From an uncultured Candidatus Saccharibacteria bacterium (GTDB taxonomy: Bacteria > Patescibacteriota > Minisyncoccia > 2-02-FULL-40-12 > IGHO2-01-FULL-4-A): a stretch of 30,348 nucleotides of DNA. The stretch covers positions 1 to 30,348 of the forward strand of contig CAYUQA010000085.1 in the NCBI GenBank assembly GCA_964446135.1. The letters run 5' to 3'. Positions 8,302 through 17,261 of this stretch are shown here, in pieces. Under the pieces are notes generated by a model, which saw nothing but the letters and a program-made list of their open reading frames with translations, was not told the origin of the DNA and made no database searches. Position 1 is the first letter of the stretch. Each line of letters opens with the position of its first letter. Made by a program: the position numbers and the translations under genes.

Positions 8302-9021
8302 TTACTGAATTTTACGTTTAAGCCAATCAACGACTGGTAGAAAACTTGTGGTTTTAGTAACTGTCTCAAAATGGCCAGAATTAAAAAGATCCACGCATTC
8401 ATTATCAGTCTCGGCGACACCACAACGATTATCCTCGTATGGACTTAAATATCGGTCAACGAGAGAATCGCCCAAAGCAAAGATTCTGTTATCGGCAACG
8501 CCGTGTTTCTGGGCAAACAACTCGGAAAAGAACCATTTGTTATGTCCGACCACTAGCGTTTCTTCTTTATAGCCACAGGCTCTGCCAGATTCATCAAACA
8601 GCAGATCAGCGGCATAAATTTCATCAACGAGACCCAGTGCATTATTGCCTTCAAGCACCGCCTCAATAAATTGTTTGATACCAAAAGAAACGATAGCAAT
8701 CTTTATATGATTTTGTTCACAAAAGATAGAAAGATCCTTAAAATTATCTCGCATAGGTAGCTTACCGAGTACTTCACGAACAGCTTCTCTAGATAATCCG
8801 GCTCGAATATATAGTTCGAGTGACTGTCTCATCCACGATAATTCATCTTCGATACCACACGTACCAGTAGTAATTTTTTCCTGATAAAATACTCGCAAAG
8901 CATCTAGCTCTTTCCCATGCGTATTTTTAAGAATACCTTCATCGATATTTTGACACAACGCTTTTTTAGATCTCAGCAAACAGGTCCCGTCGAAATCGAC
9001 AGCTAGAACATATTGAACCAC
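8302..9021 (-). CDS. HAD-superfamily hydrolase/phosphatase (239 aa)
   Basis: Motif I VDFDGT, motif II VSFG, motif IV LGDSLVD; GTG start with GAGGTG Shine-Dalgarno. Confidence 0.85.
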   Translation of the reverse strand: MVQYVLAVDFDGTCLLRSKKALCQNIDEGILKNTHGKELDALRVFYQEKITTGTCGIEDELSWMRQSLELYIRAGLSREAVREVLGKLPMRDNFKDLSIFCEQNHIKIAIVSFGIKQFIEAVLEGNNALGLVDEIYAADLLFDESGRACGYKEETLVVGHNKWFFSELFAQKHGVADNRIFALGDSLVDRYLSPYEDNRCGVAETDNECVDLFNSGHFETVTKTTSFLPVVDWLKRKIQ

Positions 9022-9086: not shown

Positions 9087-10244
9087 CTACTTTAATATTT
9101 TTACGAGCGCCGAGACAAGAGTATCAATCTCTTTTTTTGTCGTTGGACGGCCAAGACTAATGCGAACAACGCCGTCTTGATAATGTCTAGATAGATTCAG
9201 CGCTTTGACGACATGAGATGGACCGGTTTCGTGCGATGAACAAGCGGCGCCACTGGCGACAAAAATATTTTTAGCGCTCAATGCTTGCACGATCATCTCA
9301 CCCGAAATATTCGAAAATGCCACGCTGATAATATGAGGCACCGTTTGAACTTTTTCAGCGATCACTAACGCATCGGGGGCGACTTTTTTAATTTTTTGGA
9401 TACAATATTTTTTTAGTTCAGCCAAACGCTCCGATTCTCGGATCCGCTTTTTTTCACTAATCTCGAGTGCCTTTGCAAAACCGGCAATTGCCGAAATATT
9501 TTCGGTTCCAGATCGTAATCCGCGCTCCTGTCCGCCGCCAACAATCAAGGGCGAAAGATACTGTGGAAAATGCGACCAAAGCAAAGCAATCCCTTTAGGC
9601 CCATAGCATTTGGCCGCATTGAGTGTCATCGCATCCAAACCATACTCATGTGGCATAATCGACAGGAAGCCGGTAGCCTGACATGCGTCGCTATGCAAAA
9701 GAGGGAATAGCGCCTTGTTTTTTTTACGAAAATCCAAAATTATTTTGCTGATCTCTTTAAGTGGTTGGATGGTGCCGATTTCATTTTGAACCAACATACA
9801 AGAAACGAACACCGTCTTGCGCGTTAGTAATTTTTTGAGTGCCGTCGGGTTAACAGAACCGTCTCTATTGATGGGTGCATAGAGGACCTTAAATCCTTCT
9901 TTTTTTAAAATATCACAAGCACGATGTATAGAGGCATGCTCGACGGCACTCACTATAATATGGTTACCCTGTTTTTTAAGCGATCGGGCGATGCCAAGAA
10001 GCGCGAGATTGTTTGACTCGGTACCCGAAGCTGTAAAGATGATTTCGGGGGATTTTACGTTTAGAATCTTAGCGATACGAGATCGCGCATCCTGAACAGC
10101 GCAAGCTGAATCCGAACCAGCGCGATGTACTGATGAGGGGTTGGCATAGAAATCTTTACTGGCTTTTTCTGTAGCACGCGAAACAACCGGATCAACTGGC
10201 GTAGCAGCAGCGTAGTCGAGATAGATAGATTTTTTCTTTGGCAT
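9087..10244 (-). CDS. iscS: Cysteine desulfurase, IscS/NifS family (385 aa)
   Basis: YLDYAAATP, NPSSVH, FTASGTESNN, HSDACQA, PLP lysine in AAKCYGPKG, RSGTEN, catalytic Cys in SGAACSS. Confidence 0.9.
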   Translation of the reverse strand: MPKKKSIYLDYAAATPVDPVVSRATEKASKDFYANPSSVHRAGSDSACAVQDARSRIAKILNVKSPEIIFTASGTESNNLALLGIARSLKKQGNHIIVSAVEHASIHRACDILKKEGFKVLYAPINRDGSVNPTALKKLLTRKTVFVSCMLVQNEIGTIQPLKEISKIILDFRKKNKALFPLLHSDACQATGFLSIMPHEYGLDAMTLNAAKCYGPKGIALLWSHFPQYLSPLIVGGGQERGLRSGTENISAIAGFAKALEISEKKRIRESERLAELKKYCIQKIKKVAPDALVIAEKVQTVPHIISVAFSNISGEMIVQALSAKNIFVASGAACSSHETGPSHVVKALNLSRHYQDGVVRISLGRPTTKKEIDTLVSALVKILK

Positions 10245-10305: not shown

Positions 10306-11025
10306 CTATTTTAGGGCGGCGTCTATGGTAGCTTTAAAACTAGCAAATGGCTGAGCACCTACCAGTTGAGTCCCATTGATAAAGAATGAAGGTGTACCAC
10401 TGACGTTTATAGAGCTGGCATAAGCTAAATCATTATCAATATGGCTAGTATATTTACCGGATTCAAAACATTGGTTGAATTGCGAGGCATTGAGCTTGAT
10501 ATTCGCCGCCCATCGTTTTAAGTCACTGGTCGTATATTGAACGGTCCCAGTTCCTTTTTTAGCCTGTTCTTGAAATATTTTATCGTGCATCTCCCAGAAC
10601 TTACCCTGTTCAGCGGCACATTCTACAGCTATCGCCGATGGTTTAGCTAGCGGGTGAAAATCTAAAGGAAAGTGTCTAAATACAAGTCGTGCTTTGCCGG
10701 TATCAATATATTCGGTTTTGACCTGGGCAAAAGCGCCTTCAAAGAAACTTCGGCAAAATGGACACTGAAAATCACTAAACTCAACAATCGTAACTTTGGC
10801 ATCTTTATTGCCAAGAATATGATCCTGATCTGTGATCTCAATCTTCACTGGTTTGGGTGGTGTATTATCTGCAATTTTAGCTAAACCACCAGCCCCGCCA
10901 CGTGTCATGAGTAGAGTTCCTGCAATAATAACCGCGGCGATCAAGATAGCGCCAGGTAGAATAAAAGGCTGAAAACCACGGGGGCTTGCGCTAGATGCTG
11001 GAGAAGTTTGTTGTATATCTTCCAT
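10306..11025 (-). CDS. Membrane-anchored DsbA-family thiol:disulfide oxidoreductase
   Basis: FSDFQCPFC active site, RHFPL, GTP cis-Pro loop, N-terminal TM helix; start MEDIQ (11025) preferred over 11094. Confidence 0.9.
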   Translation of the reverse strand: MEDIQQTSPASSASPRGFQPFILPGAILIAAVIIAGTLLMTRGGAGGLAKIADNTPPKPVKIEITDQDHILGNKDAKVTIVEFSDFQCPFCRSFFEGAFAQVKTEYIDTGKARLVFRHFPLDFHPLAKPSAIAVECAAEQGKFWEMHDKIFQEQAKKGTGTVQYTTSDLKRWAANIKLNASQFNQCFESGKYTSHIDNDLAYASSINVSGTPSFFINGTQLVGAQPFASFKATIDAALK

Positions 11026-11115
11026 AAAAATTACGATGTTGCTGATAGTTAAAAAAATATCAGAAGCATACGGATTACGTTTGGATACTAGCATATATCG
11101 ACAAGAATATACCTA

Positions 11116-11144
11116 TTGACAAGTAGTTAAATATATATTATAAT
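11116..11144 (+). promoter_or_regulatory. Perfect consensus sigma70 promoter with no downstream + strand gene
   Basis: TTGACA (11116-11121), 17 bp, TATAAT (11139-11144). Confidence 0.75.
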
Positions 11145-11150
11145 TATATA

Positions 11151-11351
11151 CATCGTGGTACTGCAACTTTCGTGACTCTCTGATGCACAATGCTCCACCT
11201 CTTTTAAGAAGTGGAGCGGTTTGATAGGCATACTATACAGCTTTTATGCTGTATAGTCTATCATTTATCAAAGGGGAAAATATCCGGTTTCCGGATATAA
11301 CCGAAGATGTGGTCCTCATAAAAAAGCCGAGCGTAAATGCCCGGCTTTTTT
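11151..11351 (+). ncRNA. Candidate ~200-nt structured small RNA
   Basis: Lies between the perfect promoter and the terminator at 11315-11356; hairpins 11192-11217, 11222-11263, 11280-11298; possible closing ACATC/GATGT. Confidence 0.5.
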
Positions 11352-11356
11352 ATGAG
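11315..11356. terminator. Bidirectional terminator at the tig stop
   Basis: CTCATAAAAAAGCCG ... CGGCTTTTTTATGAG, 15-bp perfect stem. Confidence 0.85.
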
Positions 11357-12657
11357 ACAATCTCCTCGACCGCTCTTGCGCCCTGTTCTAGAAGTGAGAA
11401 CACCTTGTCTGTGGTTAGTGTCTCTCTTATCTGACTTTTCATTCTCTCTATGGTCTCCGGTTTTAACTGCTCGGGATTCTGGCCAAGGCGGACCATTGAA
11501 TACTGCAACAGAGCCTGAAGCTCTACGTCGACCTCATCTTCAGAGACCGAGATATTCTCCGCGCGAGCAATCGCTCGCAACACTAGATTTGCTTTTACTT
11601 GTGATTCGGCCTGCTTGCACCATTCTTTTCTAAGCTCCTCTTCTGTTTTTTTAATATGCACCAGATATAAAGCCAGTTCGAGACCATTTCGATGAAGCTC
11701 TTCATCGAAAGAGGCGATCATTGAATCCAGTCGCTCGTTGATAAGCGTCTCCGGGATATCGGCTTCACTTTTTTGGGCGACTTGCTCCATTAGGTTTAGT
11801 CTTATTTTTTCTTTTGCCTTATCATTTTTTTCTTTAAATAAACCGTCACGAATACTTGCCCTTAAATCATCGGCTGTCTGAAAAGAGCCAAGAGAAGCGA
11901 CAAAAGAATCGTTGAGTTCGGGAGTCTCACGATCCTCTATTTTTTTTACTGTAACTTCGGCATGTAGCGTCTTGCCAGCGATAGTTTGTTGGTAATAATC
12001 AGCTGGTATTTCAAGATTGAATTCTTTAAACTCGCTCTTCTTCATGCCGACAATATGATCCTCAAAGCCAACAACAAATTTGTTGTCACCTATAGTTATG
12101 GGGTGATTTTCACTTTTGCCGCCGTCAATAACGGCATCGCCTTCTTTAATAATAAAATCGACTTCAACACGATCACCATTCTGGGCTGGGCGGTCAACTT
12201 CATTAAAAACTGTGCGTGATTTTGTAATATCTTGGACCACCTTATCTACCTCTTCGTCGCTGACAGATATAGTCTCTGGTTTAAATTTAAGATCAACATA
12301 ACTTCCGAGTTTTATATTAGGGAACAGAGATAGTAAGACTTCGAATTTTAAAAGGTCTTTGGAATTTTCAAGAACCTTTAGATCACTATAGGAGATAAAA
12401 TCCAACTTTTCTTTTTTGACTACGTTCGAAAGACTATTCTCAATTGCCATATTGAGGGCCTCTTGTCTGATATGGTCTTCGCCAACTTTTTTACGAAATA
12501 TATCCGGCGGCGTTTTGCCGGGACGAAATCCCTCTAGTGTGCTTTGCTTTATCATCGCCTGCTCGGTAGCCTCTATAAATCCGGCCAAATCGGAACTATC
12601 TAAATCAATAGTTAGTTTAACTCGACTGTCCTTTAGCTCTGTAACCTTATGTTCCAT
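11350..12657 (-). CDS. tig: Trigger factor (435 aa)
   Basis: Ribosome-binding GFRPGKTP signature, FKBP domain (GDRVEVDF, GFEDHIVGMK), C-terminal chaperone domain. Confidence 0.95.
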   Translation of the reverse strand: MEHKVTELKDSRVKLTIDLDSSDLAGFIEATEQAMIKQSTLEGFRPGKTPPDIFRKKVGEDHIRQEALNMAIENSLSNVVKKEKLDFISYSDLKVLENSKDLLKFEVLLSLFPNIKLGSYVDLKFKPETISVSDEEVDKVVQDITKSRTVFNEVDRPAQNGDRVEVDFIIKEGDAVIDGGKSENHPITIGDNKFVVGFEDHIVGMKKSEFKEFNLEIPADYYQQTIAGKTLHAEVTVKKIEDRETPELNDSFVASLGSFQTADDLRASIRDGLFKEKNDKAKEKIRLNLMEQVAQKSEADIPETLINERLDSMIASFDEELHRNGLELALYLVHIKKTEEELRKEWCKQAESQVKANLVLRAIARAENISVSEDEVDVELQALLQYSMVRLGQNPEQLKPETIERMKSQIRETLTTDKVFSLLEQGARAVEEIVS

Positions 12658-12658
12658 A

Positions 12659-13999
12659 TTATTCTTCTGTTTTTATATCTGGACTTTCTCCTTCTGATAT
12701 CGAGACAGGAGTCTCCAGATCAACTTCGCTTTCTTTTGCGGTCTTCGTTGATTCTGCACTTTCAGATTCAACTGAAGTCTCGCCTTCAGCTACCACCTCT
12801 GCTTCTGCGGATTTTATTTCGCCCTGAGGAGCGCGAACATCTATCTTCCAGCCAGTTAATTTGGCCGCCAGACGAACGTTCTGGCCGCTTTTTCCAATAG
12901 CAAGTGAGAATTGATCATCAGCAACTTCGACTAATGCGTGGTGGTGTGCTTCGTCTAAAATTTTGACATTTAAAATCTTCGCCGGAGAAAGTGCTTGCGC
13001 GATAAAACGTTCTGTGTCCTCACTCCATTCAACAATATCTATCTTCTCACCACTAAGCTCGTTAATAACAGTTTGGACACGAACACCTTTCTGGCCAACC
13101 AAAGAGCCGATGGGATCAACGCCGCTCTCATGGGAGAGTACGGCGATCTTTGAACGAGACCCGGCTTCGCGAGCAATCGTACGAATTTCTACAGTGCCAG
13201 CTTCAATCTCCGGCACCTCAAAGCGGAATAGTTGCAAAACCAAATCTGGATGAGAGCGACTTAGTAGAATAACTGGCCCCCTGTTTGTCTCATCAACTCG
13301 CAATATTAAAAAACGCAAACGTTGACCGATACGATAACGATCATTCGGTAATTGCTCTATGGGCAAGAGTAGTCCGGTAGTGCGTCCGATATCGACATAA
13401 ACCATGCGACCTTCGATGCGCTGAACCAAACCAGAGATAATCGATCCCTCCTTGTTTTTAAATTCAGCATACACGACTTCTCGTTCAACCTCTCTAAGAC
13501 GTTGTATCACCACCTGCTTTGCTGTTTGCGCGGCGATACGACCAAAATCTGTTTTGGTTTCAAGAGGAAAGGTAACTTCCTCACCGACATTAATATTAGC
13601 ATTTATGCCACGAGCATCATCTATTGTAATATATTTTTCGGGATTAAAACGCACTCGAGCATCTTCTGGGCTTTGTTCTTCTGATTCTAAAACCTGCCTA
13701 TCTGGACCTTGGCGATTAGATCTATCTTCATATTCTTCTTTTACGCCTGCATCTGGTACTGGACCAACGACATACCCCTCTTCGTCGAACCCCTCAACCA
13801 CAAATTTGACCTGCCATATAGTAAACTCGCCCGTAGTTCGATCAAGATTAGCTCGAATGACCTGGCCTTTCTCGCCATAGTCTTTTTTATAAGCAGCCGA
13901 AACAGCCGCTTCTATCGTCTCAACTATCTTATCTTCGGGAATCCCTTTTTCTTCGGCAATCTGCTGAATCGCTGAAATAAATTGTTTGGTATCAAGCAT
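12659..13999 (-). CDS. nusA: Transcription termination/antitermination factor NusA (446 aa)
   Basis: FGRIAAQTAKQV, S1 domain, IAREAGSRSKIAV, DPIGSLVGQKGVRVQ, AIGKSGQNVRLAAKLTGWKID. Confidence 0.97.
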   Translation of the reverse strand: MLDTKQFISAIQQIAEEKGIPEDKIVETIEAAVSAAYKKDYGEKGQVIRANLDRTTGEFTIWQVKFVVEGFDEEGYVVGPVPDAGVKEEYEDRSNRQGPDRQVLESEEQSPEDARVRFNPEKYITIDDARGINANINVGEEVTFPLETKTDFGRIAAQTAKQVVIQRLREVEREVVYAEFKNKEGSIISGLVQRIEGRMVYVDIGRTTGLLLPIEQLPNDRYRIGQRLRFLILRVDETNRGPVILLSRSHPDLVLQLFRFEVPEIEAGTVEIRTIAREAGSRSKIAVLSHESGVDPIGSLVGQKGVRVQTVINELSGEKIDIVEWSEDTERFIAQALSPAKILNVKILDEAHHHALVEVADDQFSLAIGKSGQNVRLAAKLTGWKIDVRAPQGEIKSAEAEVVAEGETSVESESAESTKTAKESEVDLETPVSISEGESPDIKTEE

Positions 14000-14310: not shown

Positions 14311-15957
14311 ATGGTCAATATCTCAACACAGTCACAAAAAAAGACAGCGGAATTGGAAAAAAAGCTCTCGTCGCTTGAGAGCGTTGAGGTTGAGAGCAAC
14401 GTCAAAGAAGAAGCCAAAAAGCTATCCTTGCCGTATGTTGATCTGTCTTCTTACCCCGTCAACGTTAACGCCCTATTTCTACTTAGTGAGCAAGACTCGC
14501 GTACTGGACAGTGCGCTGTTGTTGAAAAGGCTGGGCAGACTATCACAATCGCGGTTAGAGACCCTAAAAACAACCAGACTCTATACATATTAAACACACT
14601 GAAGGACAGGGGGTTTACAATAAATCAAGTCTTAGTATCTGAAGTTGGCCTTGAAAACGTATGGAAACGCTATAGCGAACGCCAAGAAATCAGATTTGAG
14701 AATCCAGGCATTTTAGAAATAGGCGAGGCGGATATCAAATCGATAGAGGATATCGCTAATAAATTAAGTAATCTAGCCGTCACTGACATTTTGGAGAGTA
14801 TTATTGCGGCGGCGCTTAAGGCAGGATCTTCGGACATTCACCTTGAGCCAGAAGAAAAGAGTGTTCGTCTGCGTTTTCGTATTGATGGGGTGCTTCGAGA
14901 TGTAACAAACATCAATCACGACACATATCCGGGAGTATTGTCTCGTATAAAAGTAGTCTCCGGGCTCAAACTCAATATTCACGATGCGCCGCAAGATGGT
15001 CGTTTTACAATCCGCCAGAATAAAAAAGATACTGATGTTCGCGTTTCGATATTACCCGGTGCCTATGGCGAGAATGTAGTCGCTCGTATTTTAAACCCAG
15101 AAGCAGTTACCCATAAGATCGAGGACCTCGGTATGCGACCGGCGCTTTTGGCAGAAACTCGTGAGGTATTAAAGAAAACAACTGGCGCCTTATTGACAAC
15201 GGGACCGACCGGATCAGGAAAAACGACTACACTCTATGCGTTCCTTGAGGAAGTAAACAATTCTGGCGTTAAAATCATCACCATAGAGGACCCAATCGAG
15301 TATCACGTTCAAGGGGTTTCACAAACACAAGTGGACGATACGGCTGACTATACATTTGCTGATGGTTTGCGATCGATTATGCGACAAGATCCGGACGTGA
15401 TTCTGGTTGGAGAAATTCGCGATGGTGAGACAGCCGAGATCGCCATGCAGGCAGCGCTTACAGGACACTTTGTTTTTTCAACACTTCACACCAACGACGC
15501 CGCCGGAGCCATTCCGAGACTGATTGATCTAGGCGTAACTCCCATTACTATAGCTCCGGCTATCAAAGCGGTTATGGCCCAACGCCTTATTAGGCGCATA
15601 TGTAGCGCCTGTGCTGAGAAGAAGTCAATCACAGCAAGTGATAAGGCGACGCTAGAAAAATATTTTAAAAATCTACCGGATAAACAAGCGATTGATATTA
15701 GCTCCATTTCCGAGCTTACATATCCAAAAGGTTGTGATGCCTGTGATAAATCAGGATATAAAGGACGCGTCGGGGTATTCGAACTTTTTACTATTGATGA
15801 CGAGATCGAAAAGTTAATTCTACAATCACCTGCGATATCGACAGTCAGGGATATTGCGATTAAAAAGGGCATGGTCCCGATGTTGCAAGACGGTTTATTG
15901 CGAGTAATTGAAGGTATGACAACCGTCGATGAGGTGATTAGAGTAGTTGGAACGTAA
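14311..15957 (+). CDS. pilB: Type IV pilus assembly/type II secretion ATPase, PilB/GspE family (548 aa)
   Basis: SDIHLEP, Walker A GPTGSGKTT, Asp box TIEDPIEY, Walker B RQDPDVILVGEIRD, His box TLHTND, CxxC..CxxC zinc site. Confidence 0.9.
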   Translation: MVNISTQSQKKTAELEKKLSSLESVEVESNVKEEAKKLSLPYVDLSSYPVNVNALFLLSEQDSRTGQCAVVEKAGQTITIAVRDPKNNQTLYILNTLKDRGFTINQVLVSEVGLENVWKRYSERQEIRFENPGILEIGEADIKSIEDIANKLSNLAVTDILESIIAAALKAGSSDIHLEPEEKSVRLRFRIDGVLRDVTNINHDTYPGVLSRIKVVSGLKLNIHDAPQDGRFTIRQNKKDTDVRVSILPGAYGENVVARILNPEAVTHKIEDLGMRPALLAETREVLKKTTGALLTTGPTGSGKTTTLYAFLEEVNNSGVKIITIEDPIEYHVQGVSQTQVDDTADYTFADGLRSIMRQDPDVILVGEIRDGETAEIAMQAALTGHFVFSTLHTNDAAGAIPRLIDLGVTPITIAPAIKAVMAQRLIRRICSACAEKKSITASDKATLEKYFKNLPDKQAIDISSISELTYPKGCDACDKSGYKGRVGVFELFTIDDEIEKLILQSPAISTVRDIAIKKGMVPMLQDGLLRVIEGMTTVDEVIRVVGT

Positions 15958-16125
15958 ACGAACCCTGACAATCCGCAAGCACTCTCCCGCATCTTAATAA
16001 AACGCGGGGTAGAATAATAGCGAGGTATATCCCAGTCGAAACCAAGATACCCGTCAACAAGAATATTCCAATTGAATCCGATGTCTCCAACAAGATTCAT
16101 GTGCCTGCGGATTGTCAGGGTTCGT
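15958..16125 (-). ncRNA. 6S RNA-like rod-shaped ncRNA (168 nt)
   Basis: 25-bp closing stem (20-bp perfect IR + G-U + 4 bp on -), central region, terminal stem with UUCG tetraloop at 16037-16040 near the midpoint; G-U pairs favour -; TAAGTT -10 candidate at 16137-16132. Confidence 0.6.
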
Positions 16126-16157
16126 ATCAAAAACTTACTACGTAACAACAAATTTAA

Positions 16158-16189
16158 TAAAAAAGCCTTGTAATAACAAAGCTTTTTTA
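16158..16189. terminator. Bidirectional terminator-like hairpin between pilB/ncRNA and ruvB
   Basis: TAAAAAAGC-C-TTGT-AATA-ACAA-A-GCTTTTTTA. Confidence 0.6.
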
Positions 16190-16226
16190 CAAAGAATGTG
16201 CTTAAAGTATACCAAATATTACCACT

Positions 16227-17261
16227 ATGTCAAGGCCAGTCGGTACAGAAAATATCATCGCAAGCCCATCGCAGAATAATGACGAAGTCACCTTTGACTT
16301 AGCTCTTCGGCCACAGGCATTTGATGAGTACATCGGCCAAGAACAGGTTAAGCGCAATTTAAAAATATTAATTGGTGCCGCAAGCAAACGAGGCGAGGCT
16401 CTGGAGCACATCCTAATACATGGCCCATCGGGTCTAGGTAAGACGACACTATCCTATCTTATAGCAAAAGAATTTGGCGCAGCCATAAAAATCACATCTG
16501 GCACTGCGCTTGAAAAGGCTGGTGATATTGGATCCATTCTTACTGGCCTTAGCGATGGTGATTTTTTGTTTATTGATGAAGTGCATAGGCTCAACAAGGC
16601 AGTCGAGGAGACGCTATACCCGGCAATGGAGAACTACAATCTAGATATTATTATCGGCAAAGGTGTCTCGGCAAAAACACTACAAGTGAAGCTCCCGCGC
16701 TTCACTCTGATCGCCGCCACCACAAGAATATCGCTTTTATCCAACCCGTTTCGCTCTCGTTTTGGCGCACATTATAAGTTAGATTTTTATACAACCGAGG
16801 AAATCAGTCGAATATTAGGTCGCTCTGCGAGACTGCTGAATATAGAGATAGACAGCGATGCACTTACAATCATCGCGCAAGCATCTCGCCTGACACCACG
16901 TATCGCGAATAGACTACTAAAGCGCGTCCGAGATTATACACAAGTCCAAAATGCCGAACGCATCACAAAGTCATTAGCTCTTCTGGCGCTGGAGCTCATT
17001 GGCATTGATAATATTGGTCTTGATGATACTGATCGAAAAATATTGCGGATAATAGGTCAAAACTTCCAAGGTGGTCCGGTTGGACTTAAATCAATAGCCG
17101 CCGCCATAGCAGAAGAAGAAGAAACCGTTGAAGATGTTTATGAACCCTACTTACTACAACTCGGCTTGATTGCTCGCACAAGTCGAGGTAGAGTAATAAC
17201 CGATATCGGTAGGGTTCACATAGGCTTAGCTGTCGAACAAAGAGAACAATCTTTTCTATGA
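16227..17261 (+). CDS. ruvB: Holliday junction branch-migration ATPase RuvB (344 aa)
   Basis: LRPQAFDEYIGQ, GPSGLGKTT, FIDEVHRL, YPAMENY, TPRIANRLLKRVRD, EPYLLQLG..RGR. Confidence 0.97.
   Translation: MSRPVGTENIIASPSQNNDEVTFDLALRPQAFDEYIGQEQVKRNLKILIGAASKRGEALEHILIHGPSGLGKTTLSYLIAKEFGAAIKITSGTALEKAGDIGSILTGLSDGDFLFIDEVHRLNKAVEETLYPAMENYNLDIIIGKGVSAKTLQVKLPRFTLIAATTRISLLSNPFRSRFGAHYKLDFYTTEEISRILGRSARLLNIEIDSDALTIIAQASRLTPRIANRLLKRVRDYTQVQNAERITKSLALLALELIGIDNIGLDDTDRKILRIIGQNFQGGPVGLKSIAAAIAEEEETVEDVYEPYLLQLGLIARTSRGRVITDIGRVHIGLAVEQREQSFL

Follow-up and report, generated by a model that had tools for sequence, protein, structure and literature searches.

Genetic organization of the tig-dsbA region

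The window analysed here, a contiguous stretch of DNA of 30,348 nucleotides, contains a set of genes that are all encoded on the minus strand: nusA (positions 12659-13999), tig (11350-12657), a gene for a DsbA-like thioredoxin (10306-11094, with the real start probably near 11026), a class-V aminotransferase gene (9087-10244), and a gene for a HAD hydrolase (8302-9021). Between tig and dsbA, in an orientation that is convergent with tig and divergent from dsbA, lies what is almost certainly a real structured RNA gene of ca. 200 nt. A first-pass annotation, made from the sequence without database searches, had proposed at this place an unannotated and possibly novel small RNA of the CPR, a proposal that is strengthened by the conservation of promoter, RNA body and terminator, the covariation of the helices, a bias towards G.U pairs, and the lack of a match in Rfam, all of which are described below. 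The gene appears to be free-standing, and is predicted to be transcribed from a perfect sigma-70-type promoter at positions 11116-11144 and to be stopped at a bidirectional terminator on the tig side.

A comparable layout was observed at another place of the window. At positions 16157-16233 of the minus strand there is a promoter matching the consensus at 11 of 12 positions (TTGACA-16-TATACT, preceded by TG) and, about 15 nt past it, a bidirectional terminator hairpin that also ends a pilB-like gene, an arrangement that would give a convergent transcript of ca. 50 nt. The open reading frame at positions 15486-16151 of the minus strand, which overlaps pilB and has no Pfam match, is probably spurious.

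Promoter, terminator and predicted transcript

A sequence scan located, on the plus strand, a -35 hexamer TTGACA (11116-11121) and, after a spacer of 17 nt, a -10 hexamer TATAAT (11139-11144). This had been described as the only perfect TTGACA-17-TATAAT of the region, and indeed no other site with a 12/12 match and a spacer of 16-18 nt was found on either strand of the whole 30-kb window, in which sites with an 11/12 match are only two; simple arithmetic from base composition gives an expectation of ca. 0.04 perfect promoters per window. The promoter points at no protein gene, the next gene on the plus strand beginning 3 kb away at position 14311. The stretch encoding the RNA is identical between independent assemblies from two DNA sequencing runs, so that it is not an assembly artefact. 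That the RNA may be abundant is deduced from the quality of its promoter alone.

At the other end, a G+C-rich stem (11326-11345) and the U tract after it (11346-11351) make up the strong terminator that had been noticed after the hairpins. The initial description has to be corrected in one respect: the terminator is bidirectional, with an A tract at positions 11320-11325 on the other side of the stem, and its U tract overlaps the stop codon of tig (11350-11352). The element at 11326-11351, readable on both strands, would thus serve both the RNA gene and the convergent tig gene. The primary transcript is predicted to span positions 11151-11351 (plus strand, ca. 200 nt), with the start placed from the position of the -10 hexamer and the end from the U tract. 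None of the RNA sequencing runs that were searched for the sequences of the window and of two homologous loci (L088, L021) contains them, and three small Rifle metatranscriptome assemblies, each with a small SOLiD run, gave zero depth on L021, L029 and L026, a result that carries no information on expression.

The plus strand between positions 11151 and 11353 folds with a predicted free energy of -77 kcal/mol, as compared to -46 ± 4 kcal/mol for dinucleotide-shuffled sequences (z = -7.5), and none of 200 shuffles folded as well. Two other members of the family gave z-scores of -6.2 and -5.8. The minus strand of the region folds equally well (z = -8.4), and folding alone therefore gives no information on the strand.

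Conservation and distribution of the RNA

An exact-peptide search for tig in GTDB genomes rendered no match, and tig loci were retrieved instead by an alignment-based search, which gathered 160 loci from species-representative genomes and metagenomes. The nearest relatives of tig belong to Parcubacteria/Minisyncoccia/Yanofskybacteria genomes and show at most 58% identity. In the syntenic contigs with the closest tig genes, tig is followed by a gap of 280-360 nt that bears a TTGACA/TATAAT promoter, the same helices and a terminator, these features standing on the strand opposite to tig. A covariance model, R1, was built from three seed sequences, that of the window included, and it matches more than 30 loci, all of them right after tig and in the opposite orientation; in the window, which is one of the seeds, the match covers positions 11154-11320 of the plus strand with 157.9 bits. 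A scan anchored on the promoter revealed many further loci in which a near-perfect convergent promoter is followed by a shorter related RNA, and a second model, R2, built from this short form, matches about 35 additional loci at the same position beside tig. Six loci are matched by both models, which links the long and short forms. A strict regular-expression descriptor recovered only 3 members. As to specificity, R2 gave zero matches in 351 kb of unrelated viral contigs, among which a 15-mer scan had picked up 42 chance matches, and a second copy of the RNA was not found in ca. 870 kb of DNA flanking tig.

Taking both models together, the RNA is present in ca. 75 of ca. 100 loci of Yanofskybacteria-like Parcubacteria. 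In a tree of tig, it appears in all the major branches of a single clade, the Yanofskybacteria-like group, and it is absent from the 50 outgroup loci. As judged from these sequences, the family is conserved at the same position in a Yanofskybacteria-like clade of the Parcubacteria (Patescibacteria/CPR). Several assemblies titled "uncultured Candidatus Saccharibacteria" (L007, L016, L022, L023, L033 and others) carry a tig gene that falls inside the Parcubacteria/Yanofskybacteria clade; some assemblies with this title also carry the RNA, and these taxon labels look unreliable.

The elements by which a locus can be assigned to the new family, namely the promoter, the rod of helices P1 and P2 (with ACU.../...GGU and CGU/A(C/U)CG), the hairpins P3 and P4, and the terminator, are all found in the window within positions 11116-11351. 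Among 48 non-redundant homologs with upstream sequence available, the promoter matches the consensus at 12/12 positions in 34 and at 11/12 positions in 11, and a TG is found just 5' of the -10 hexamer in 43; the end of the -10 hexamer is typically located 5-9 nt 5' of the first position of the covariance model. A script that looks for a hairpin plus a run of T detected an intrinsic terminator in 50 of 62 homologs, usually a bidirectional one, and in most of them a single hairpin is common to the two convergent genes.

Roughly one fourth of the loci within the clade show no RNA beside tig, although some of those contigs end too early. Close relatives that do not bear the RNA gene include L012, L017, L018, L020, L087, L091 and L104, among others. 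In several of the RNA-less relatives, a doxX-like gene is found 30-110 nt after tig, followed by the aminotransferase gene on the same strand, which suggests that the whole cassette may have been cleanly lost on repeated occasions. In two loci (L139, L150), the slot downstream of tig is filled by two tRNA genes with a promoter of their own on the minus strand. The best reading of the distribution is ancestral presence followed by repeated loss or relocation, and the losses within the clade speak against an essential function in housekeeping, provided that the gene has not moved elsewhere in the genome.

Secondary structure and covariation

The RNA is modelled as a long irregular rod in which its 5' end pairs with its 3' end (P1 and P2), with a three-way junction at the tip from which two hairpins, P3 and P4, emerge. 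The initial inspection had identified three hairpins, which are present as claimed at positions 11192-11217, 11222-11263 and 11280-11298, as well as a possible closing pair ACATC/GATGT. The latter is not a conserved closure, since GAUGU pairs instead within P1; the conserved closing helix is longer, and consists of P1 (11157-11173/11299-11315) plus P2 (11176-11185/11266-11276).

The 5' strand of P1 (GGUACUGCAACUUUCGU, plus strand, 11157-11173) contains the conserved ACUG and CGU, and its 3' strand (AACCGAAGAUGUGGUCC, 11299-11315) the conserved AACCG and UGGU. The ACUG/UGGU pairing is nearly invariant, with a U.G wobble in 23 of 23 sequences and a C-G pair in 22 of 24 (alignment A5), and CGU opposite A(C/U)CG flanks a C x C mismatch. 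Of the 11 pairs in the main helix of P1, 10 show double changes, and all 10 pairs of P2 have compensatory changes (both in A5). The 5' strand of P2 (11176-11185) pairs with a 3' strand (UAUCAAAGGGG, 11266-11276) after which comes an A-rich joiner, AAA, at positions 11277-11279. P3 (GCTCCAC/GTGGAGC, 11192-11217) is a G+C-rich hairpin in which 7 of 7 pairs covary in both subfamilies, and across the family it often bears loops of the UUCG type. P4 (TGATAG...CTATCA, 11222-11263) is rich in A+U, is lengthened in the window by a perfect stem of 10 bp, and shows double changes in all of its modelled pairs (5 of 5 in A5, 8 of 8 in A8); its apical motif AUUAUA is invariant in alignment A6, with 18 members. 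P5 (ATATCCGG/CCGGATAT, 11280-11298) is an optional peripheral element, with three modelled pairs that covary; it is inserted in the 3' strand of the rod, is dispensable, and is missing from the short form and enlarged in other members by up to roughly 170 nt. Loops and joiners show little conservation, and almost all of what is conserved is the shape together with a few motifs of the rod.

The follow-up that had been suggested for the dsbA-tig intergenic region, i.e. a search for covariation among relatives, was carried out, and all the helices covary. In A5 (24 sequences), 91.6% of the cells are paired, versus 33-47% when the partners are slid, and double changes occur in 39 of 41 pairs, a figure reached by 0 of 500 shuffles. 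For A8 (27 sequences), the corresponding values are 90.9% versus 37-49%, with double changes in 30 of 38 pairs and, again, 0 of 500 shuffles as high. Both alignments were fitted to the covariance models, so that these counts lean toward the structure; alignments produced with MAFFT only, with no fit to a model, also show compensatory changes in P1, P2 and P3. Moreover, in the pairs of the family G.U or U.G combinations outnumber A.C or C.A combinations by 142 to 29. Such an excess identifies the plus strand as the one that bears the RNA, since neither a DNA palindrome nor an RNA from the minus strand would show that bias.

Several members deviate from the common form by additional elements. 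Large lineage-specific expansions are found in P5 (L009, L089, L095, L097), and hairpins are inserted in the 5' strand (L153, L148) or in P3 (L116, L157). These expansions sit at fixed points and recall the expansion segments reported in the ribosomal RNAs of the CPR. Two loci that represent different subtypes (L023, L029) have an extra conserved long hairpin (ACCCCGCACUUAA...UUAAGUGCGGGGU) between the 3' strand of P1 and the terminator.

A promoter-like site on the opposite strand and a possible antisense role

In most of the relatives, the DNA strand opposite to the RNA carries a promoter-like site of the form TTGnnn-16/18-TATAAT (e.g. in L121, L160 and L003), whose equivalent in the window lies within positions 11232-11276. 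Its -35 element falls in the 3' strand of P2 and the adjacent GCAA, and its -10 element in the apical AUUAUA of P4, GCAA and AUUAUA being two of the few sequences that are invariant in the RNA. In the window, only a weak promoter-like site, TAGACT-17-TATAGT, with a degenerate 9/12 match, is present inside P4 (11232-11260, minus strand). Sites of the type TTGnnn-16/18-TA...T, with the -10 hexamer required to match at 5 or more of 6 positions and often being a perfect TATAAT, were counted on the opposite strand of 45 of 50 RNA bodies; the sense strand bears them in 2 of the 50, and shuffled sequences in 2.4 ± 1.4. The count for the opposite strand is inflated by common descent, the probability that one ancestral sequence mimicked a promoter by chance being ca. 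5%. The first-pass annotation had also named a contrary outcome, in which the AT-rich box would serve only the divergent dsbA promoter and the hairpins would not be conserved. Neither part agrees with the data: the hairpins are conserved, and the opposite-strand site lies inside the RNA gene, in P2 and P4, and not in the AT-rich box.

The context of this site is in line with a function. In 54 of 55 loci, the gene that comes next, which is doxX, dsbA or that of the aminotransferase, has the orientation of the opposite-strand site. In 7 loci its open reading frame starts at the border of the RNA promoter, and its own promoter must therefore lie inside the RNA gene. The common terminator, in turn, cuts the doxX/dsbA/aminotransferase genes off the nusA-tig promoter, which makes sense of a promoter restarting transcription within the cassette. 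The opposite-strand site would then act as a promoter for these downstream genes, and that part of the sequence conservation which concerns the AUUAUA of the P4 apex and the GCAA following P2 may reflect such a function of the DNA.

These observations lend themselves to an explanation of the whole locus in which the RNA is a cis-antisense or transcriptional-interference partner of the downstream doxX/dsbA/aminotransferase operon. The downstream mRNA would start ca. 70 nt inside the RNA gene, so that the two transcripts would have ca. 70 complementary nucleotides in common, and, with the promoters facing each other, the strong promoter of the RNA, the RNA itself or both would repress or tune the downstream genes. 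The frequency of the site, the orientation of the next gene with the seven reading frames at the promoter edge, and the separation from the nusA-tig promoter all speak for it, as does the direct junction of tig to doxX in the RNA-less relatives, such a loss being easy if the role were local. However, the 5' half of the RNA, which is the part complementary to the mRNA, is buried in a rod that covaries and measures roughly 26-30 bp, the stable tetraloops of P3 (UUCG, UCCG) are poorly suited to kissing contacts, and interference would need no covariation in P1 and P2. In addition, the internal promoter of the window is degenerate while its RNA is nonetheless intact, and the counts that speak for this role are those that are inflated by descent. 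We consider a local antisense or interference role unlikely as the explanation of the RNA, although it is the strongest of the alternative readings.

Comparison with known RNA classes and alternative identities

No family of Rfam 15 matches the RNA at the gathering score, either in the window or in 12 homolog loci, and when the threshold was relaxed to E <= 10 the same sequences gave only noise driven by the terminator; in the window, the only matches at the gathering score are two tRNAs located elsewhere. Likewise, no signature of tmRNA, RNase P or SRP RNA had been recognized initially, and none came up with Rfam 15, ARAGORN or inspection of motifs. ARAGORN finds just the two tRNAs located elsewhere in the window, in agreement with Rfam. 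In one homolog (L003), the sequence AACCGGCUU resembles the 3' strand of the P4 helix of RNase P RNA, but its GCUU part varies and covaries with the P1 of the RNA itself, and the RNase P RNA families of Rfam give no match. A search of the literature found no description of such an RNA. The family is therefore new, in that it has neither a match in Rfam 15 nor a detectable relative, while the general kind to which it belongs, that of lineage-specific structured small RNAs, is well known.

Other candidates were discarded on the basis of the arrangement of the locus or of comparison between members. In the window as well as in every homolog, the RNA is followed by the terminator and then by the convergent 3' end of tig; with no gene downstream on the same strand, the RNA is not a leader or a riboswitch, and few of its junction nucleotides are conserved. 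A dispersed repeat of the MITE type is at odds with the strand asymmetry of the mismatches (the excess of G.U over A.C given above) and with the ca. 870 kb of tig loci searched, in which no locus has more than one copy and the copy always adjoins tig. A hammerhead-like CUGAUG is confined to the sequence of the window, with no conservation in the family, and the reading of CGUGA.../GGGAAAA as a kink-turn or k-junction does not hold for the family, the short form having a plain helix at this place. A ribozyme, a riboswitch, a base-pairing small RNA and an mRNA are all unlikely identities.

It could also be the case that the RNA is 6S-like and binds the RNA polymerase holoenzyme. In such a complex the rod would mimic the downstream DNA, the open bubble would be represented by the junction, and P4, rich in A+U and with a UAUAAU-like sequence, would take the place of the -10 region. 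Size, a free-standing gene, a consensus promoter, paired ends, low conservation of sequence with high conservation of shape, and a dispensable nature would all fit. It also fits that no Rfam 6S match was found in the window, its 2.5-kb flanks or the 12 homolog loci, and that our literature search rendered no paper linking 6S RNA to the CPR. Nevertheless, a large central bubble open on both sides is missing, the joiner on the 5' side measuring just 2 nt in the form with P5 or 7-9 nt otherwise, the junction is branched, and P3 would have to be longer than its 7-12 bp to extend to a mimic of the -35 region. A literal mimic of the -10 sequence within the RNA was also discarded, the perfect TATAAT being found in most members on the opposite DNA strand and not in the RNA sense. 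Taken together, these features make a 6S-like RNA improbable.

Still less probable is a small RNA acting in trans by base-pairing, which would regulate mRNAs encoded elsewhere in the genome: the promoter and terminator of its own and the size are typical, but no single-stranded stretch is conserved as a seed would be, the loops and joiners being free to vary, so elaborate a covarying architecture is unusual for the class, and, to our knowledge, chaperones of the Hfq or ProQ type are not known in the host group. That there is no RNA gene at all, and that the region consists of DNA palindromes, a MITE-like repeat, tig terminators, a minus-strand leader of dsbA or an mRNA for a 13-residue peptide, is very hard to maintain and these readings are largely refuted, since, although the minus strand folds too, the paired ends resemble terminal inverted repeats and an ATG-initiated reading frame of 13 codons does exist on the plus strand as first reported, the G.U excess is specific for the plus strand, promoter and terminator frame a unit of defined strand in dozens of genomes, this unit occupies a single fixed location with no dispersed copies, and neither the start nor the frame nor the length of the reading frame is conserved in homologs, so that the micropeptide mRNA suggested for it does not stand.

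Proposed function of the RNA

The pattern of conservation gives an indication of how the RNA could work. The conservation of shape and of the rod motifs, the variable loops, the tolerated expansions and the protected, paired ends lead us to infer a stable RNA that would be recognized by a protein and would act in trans, in the manner of the 6S, SRP or Y RNAs. The protein-binding mechanism is read from the conservation pattern only, and that the RNA works as a trans-acting, protein-bound RNA is proposed tentatively, at somewhat less than even odds. As a whole, a new structured RNA gene whose product has a stable, protein-bound role in trans is the best explanation of the data, to which we assign a probability of about 0.6. 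A bolder version, which we regard as rather unlikely, would make the RNA the core of a new ribonucleoprotein of the Parcubacteria, in which it could, for instance, replace 6S RNA functionally by sequestering RNA polymerase or act as a scaffold for a lineage-specific protein, the gene doubling as an insulator cassette. Such a cassette would comprise the terminator, the RNA and the inward-buried promoter that restarts transcription of the downstream operon.

The CPR, or Patescibacteria, account for a large part of the diversity of bacteria, and these uncultivated, ultra-small organisms live mostly as episymbionts. We know of no non-coding RNA family, beyond the universal housekeeping RNAs, that is specific for them, and a search of the literature for such a family found none. 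A structured RNA with a consensus promoter throughout its family could open a way into regulation in the CPR or into a new ribonucleoprotein. The set of loci provides, in addition, an empirical picture of the promoters of the group (TTGACA-17-TGnTATAAT) and of its bidirectional terminators, as well as a putative case of dual coding in a compact genome, in which a hairpin loop and a helix strand of the RNA would also be read as the -10 and -35 elements of the opposite strand. Alignments A5 and A8 could be used to seed a database family.

Comparison with other systems

Among known systems, the RNA-OUT/RNA-IN pair of IS10 resembles the layout proposed for the tig-side locus in that the strong promoter of a structured small RNA faces the weaker promoter of an mRNA and the 5' regions overlap. 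In the tig-side case, however, the ribosome-binding site would be far from the overlap, the RNA hides its complementary part within its own rod, and no mobile element is involved.

SRP RNA of the archaeal or large type, with a helix-5 rod plus helices 6 and 8, has in common with the tig-side RNA a rod closed by the ends and two hairpins at the tip, and tig, which the RNA adjoins, encodes another factor acting on nascent chains. The universally conserved motifs of helix 8 of SRP RNA are a GNAR tetraloop and symmetric and asymmetric loops. These motifs are absent from P3, P4 and P5 of the tig-side RNA, P3 being a simple G+C hairpin whose loops vary, P4 being rich in A+U and P5 dispensable; there is no Rfam SRP match either, and a reading of the helices as SRP helices 1/2/3/4/5 was discarded in view of the dispensable P5 and the lack of a domain IV motif.

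With 6S RNA (RF00013 and variants) the tig-side RNA shares a length of ca. 150-200 nt, a strong housekeeping promoter, ends that form a long irregular helix, a family resemblance that is apparent from shape more than from sequence, and dispensability in some lineages, but it differs in that its tip branches at a three-way junction into two hairpins and its "upstream" helix is far too short. Finally, the raiA motif RNA and similar orphans described by the Breaker laboratory differ from the tig-side RNA, which is found in the CPR, has far fewer conserved junction nucleotides, and, as judged from negative Rfam scans, is unrelated to them in sequence and structure, yet in both cases the RNA is lineage-restricted and multi-stemmed, is flanked by a promoter and a terminator of its own, has no assigned function, and combines strong covariation with a fixed gene neighbourhood.
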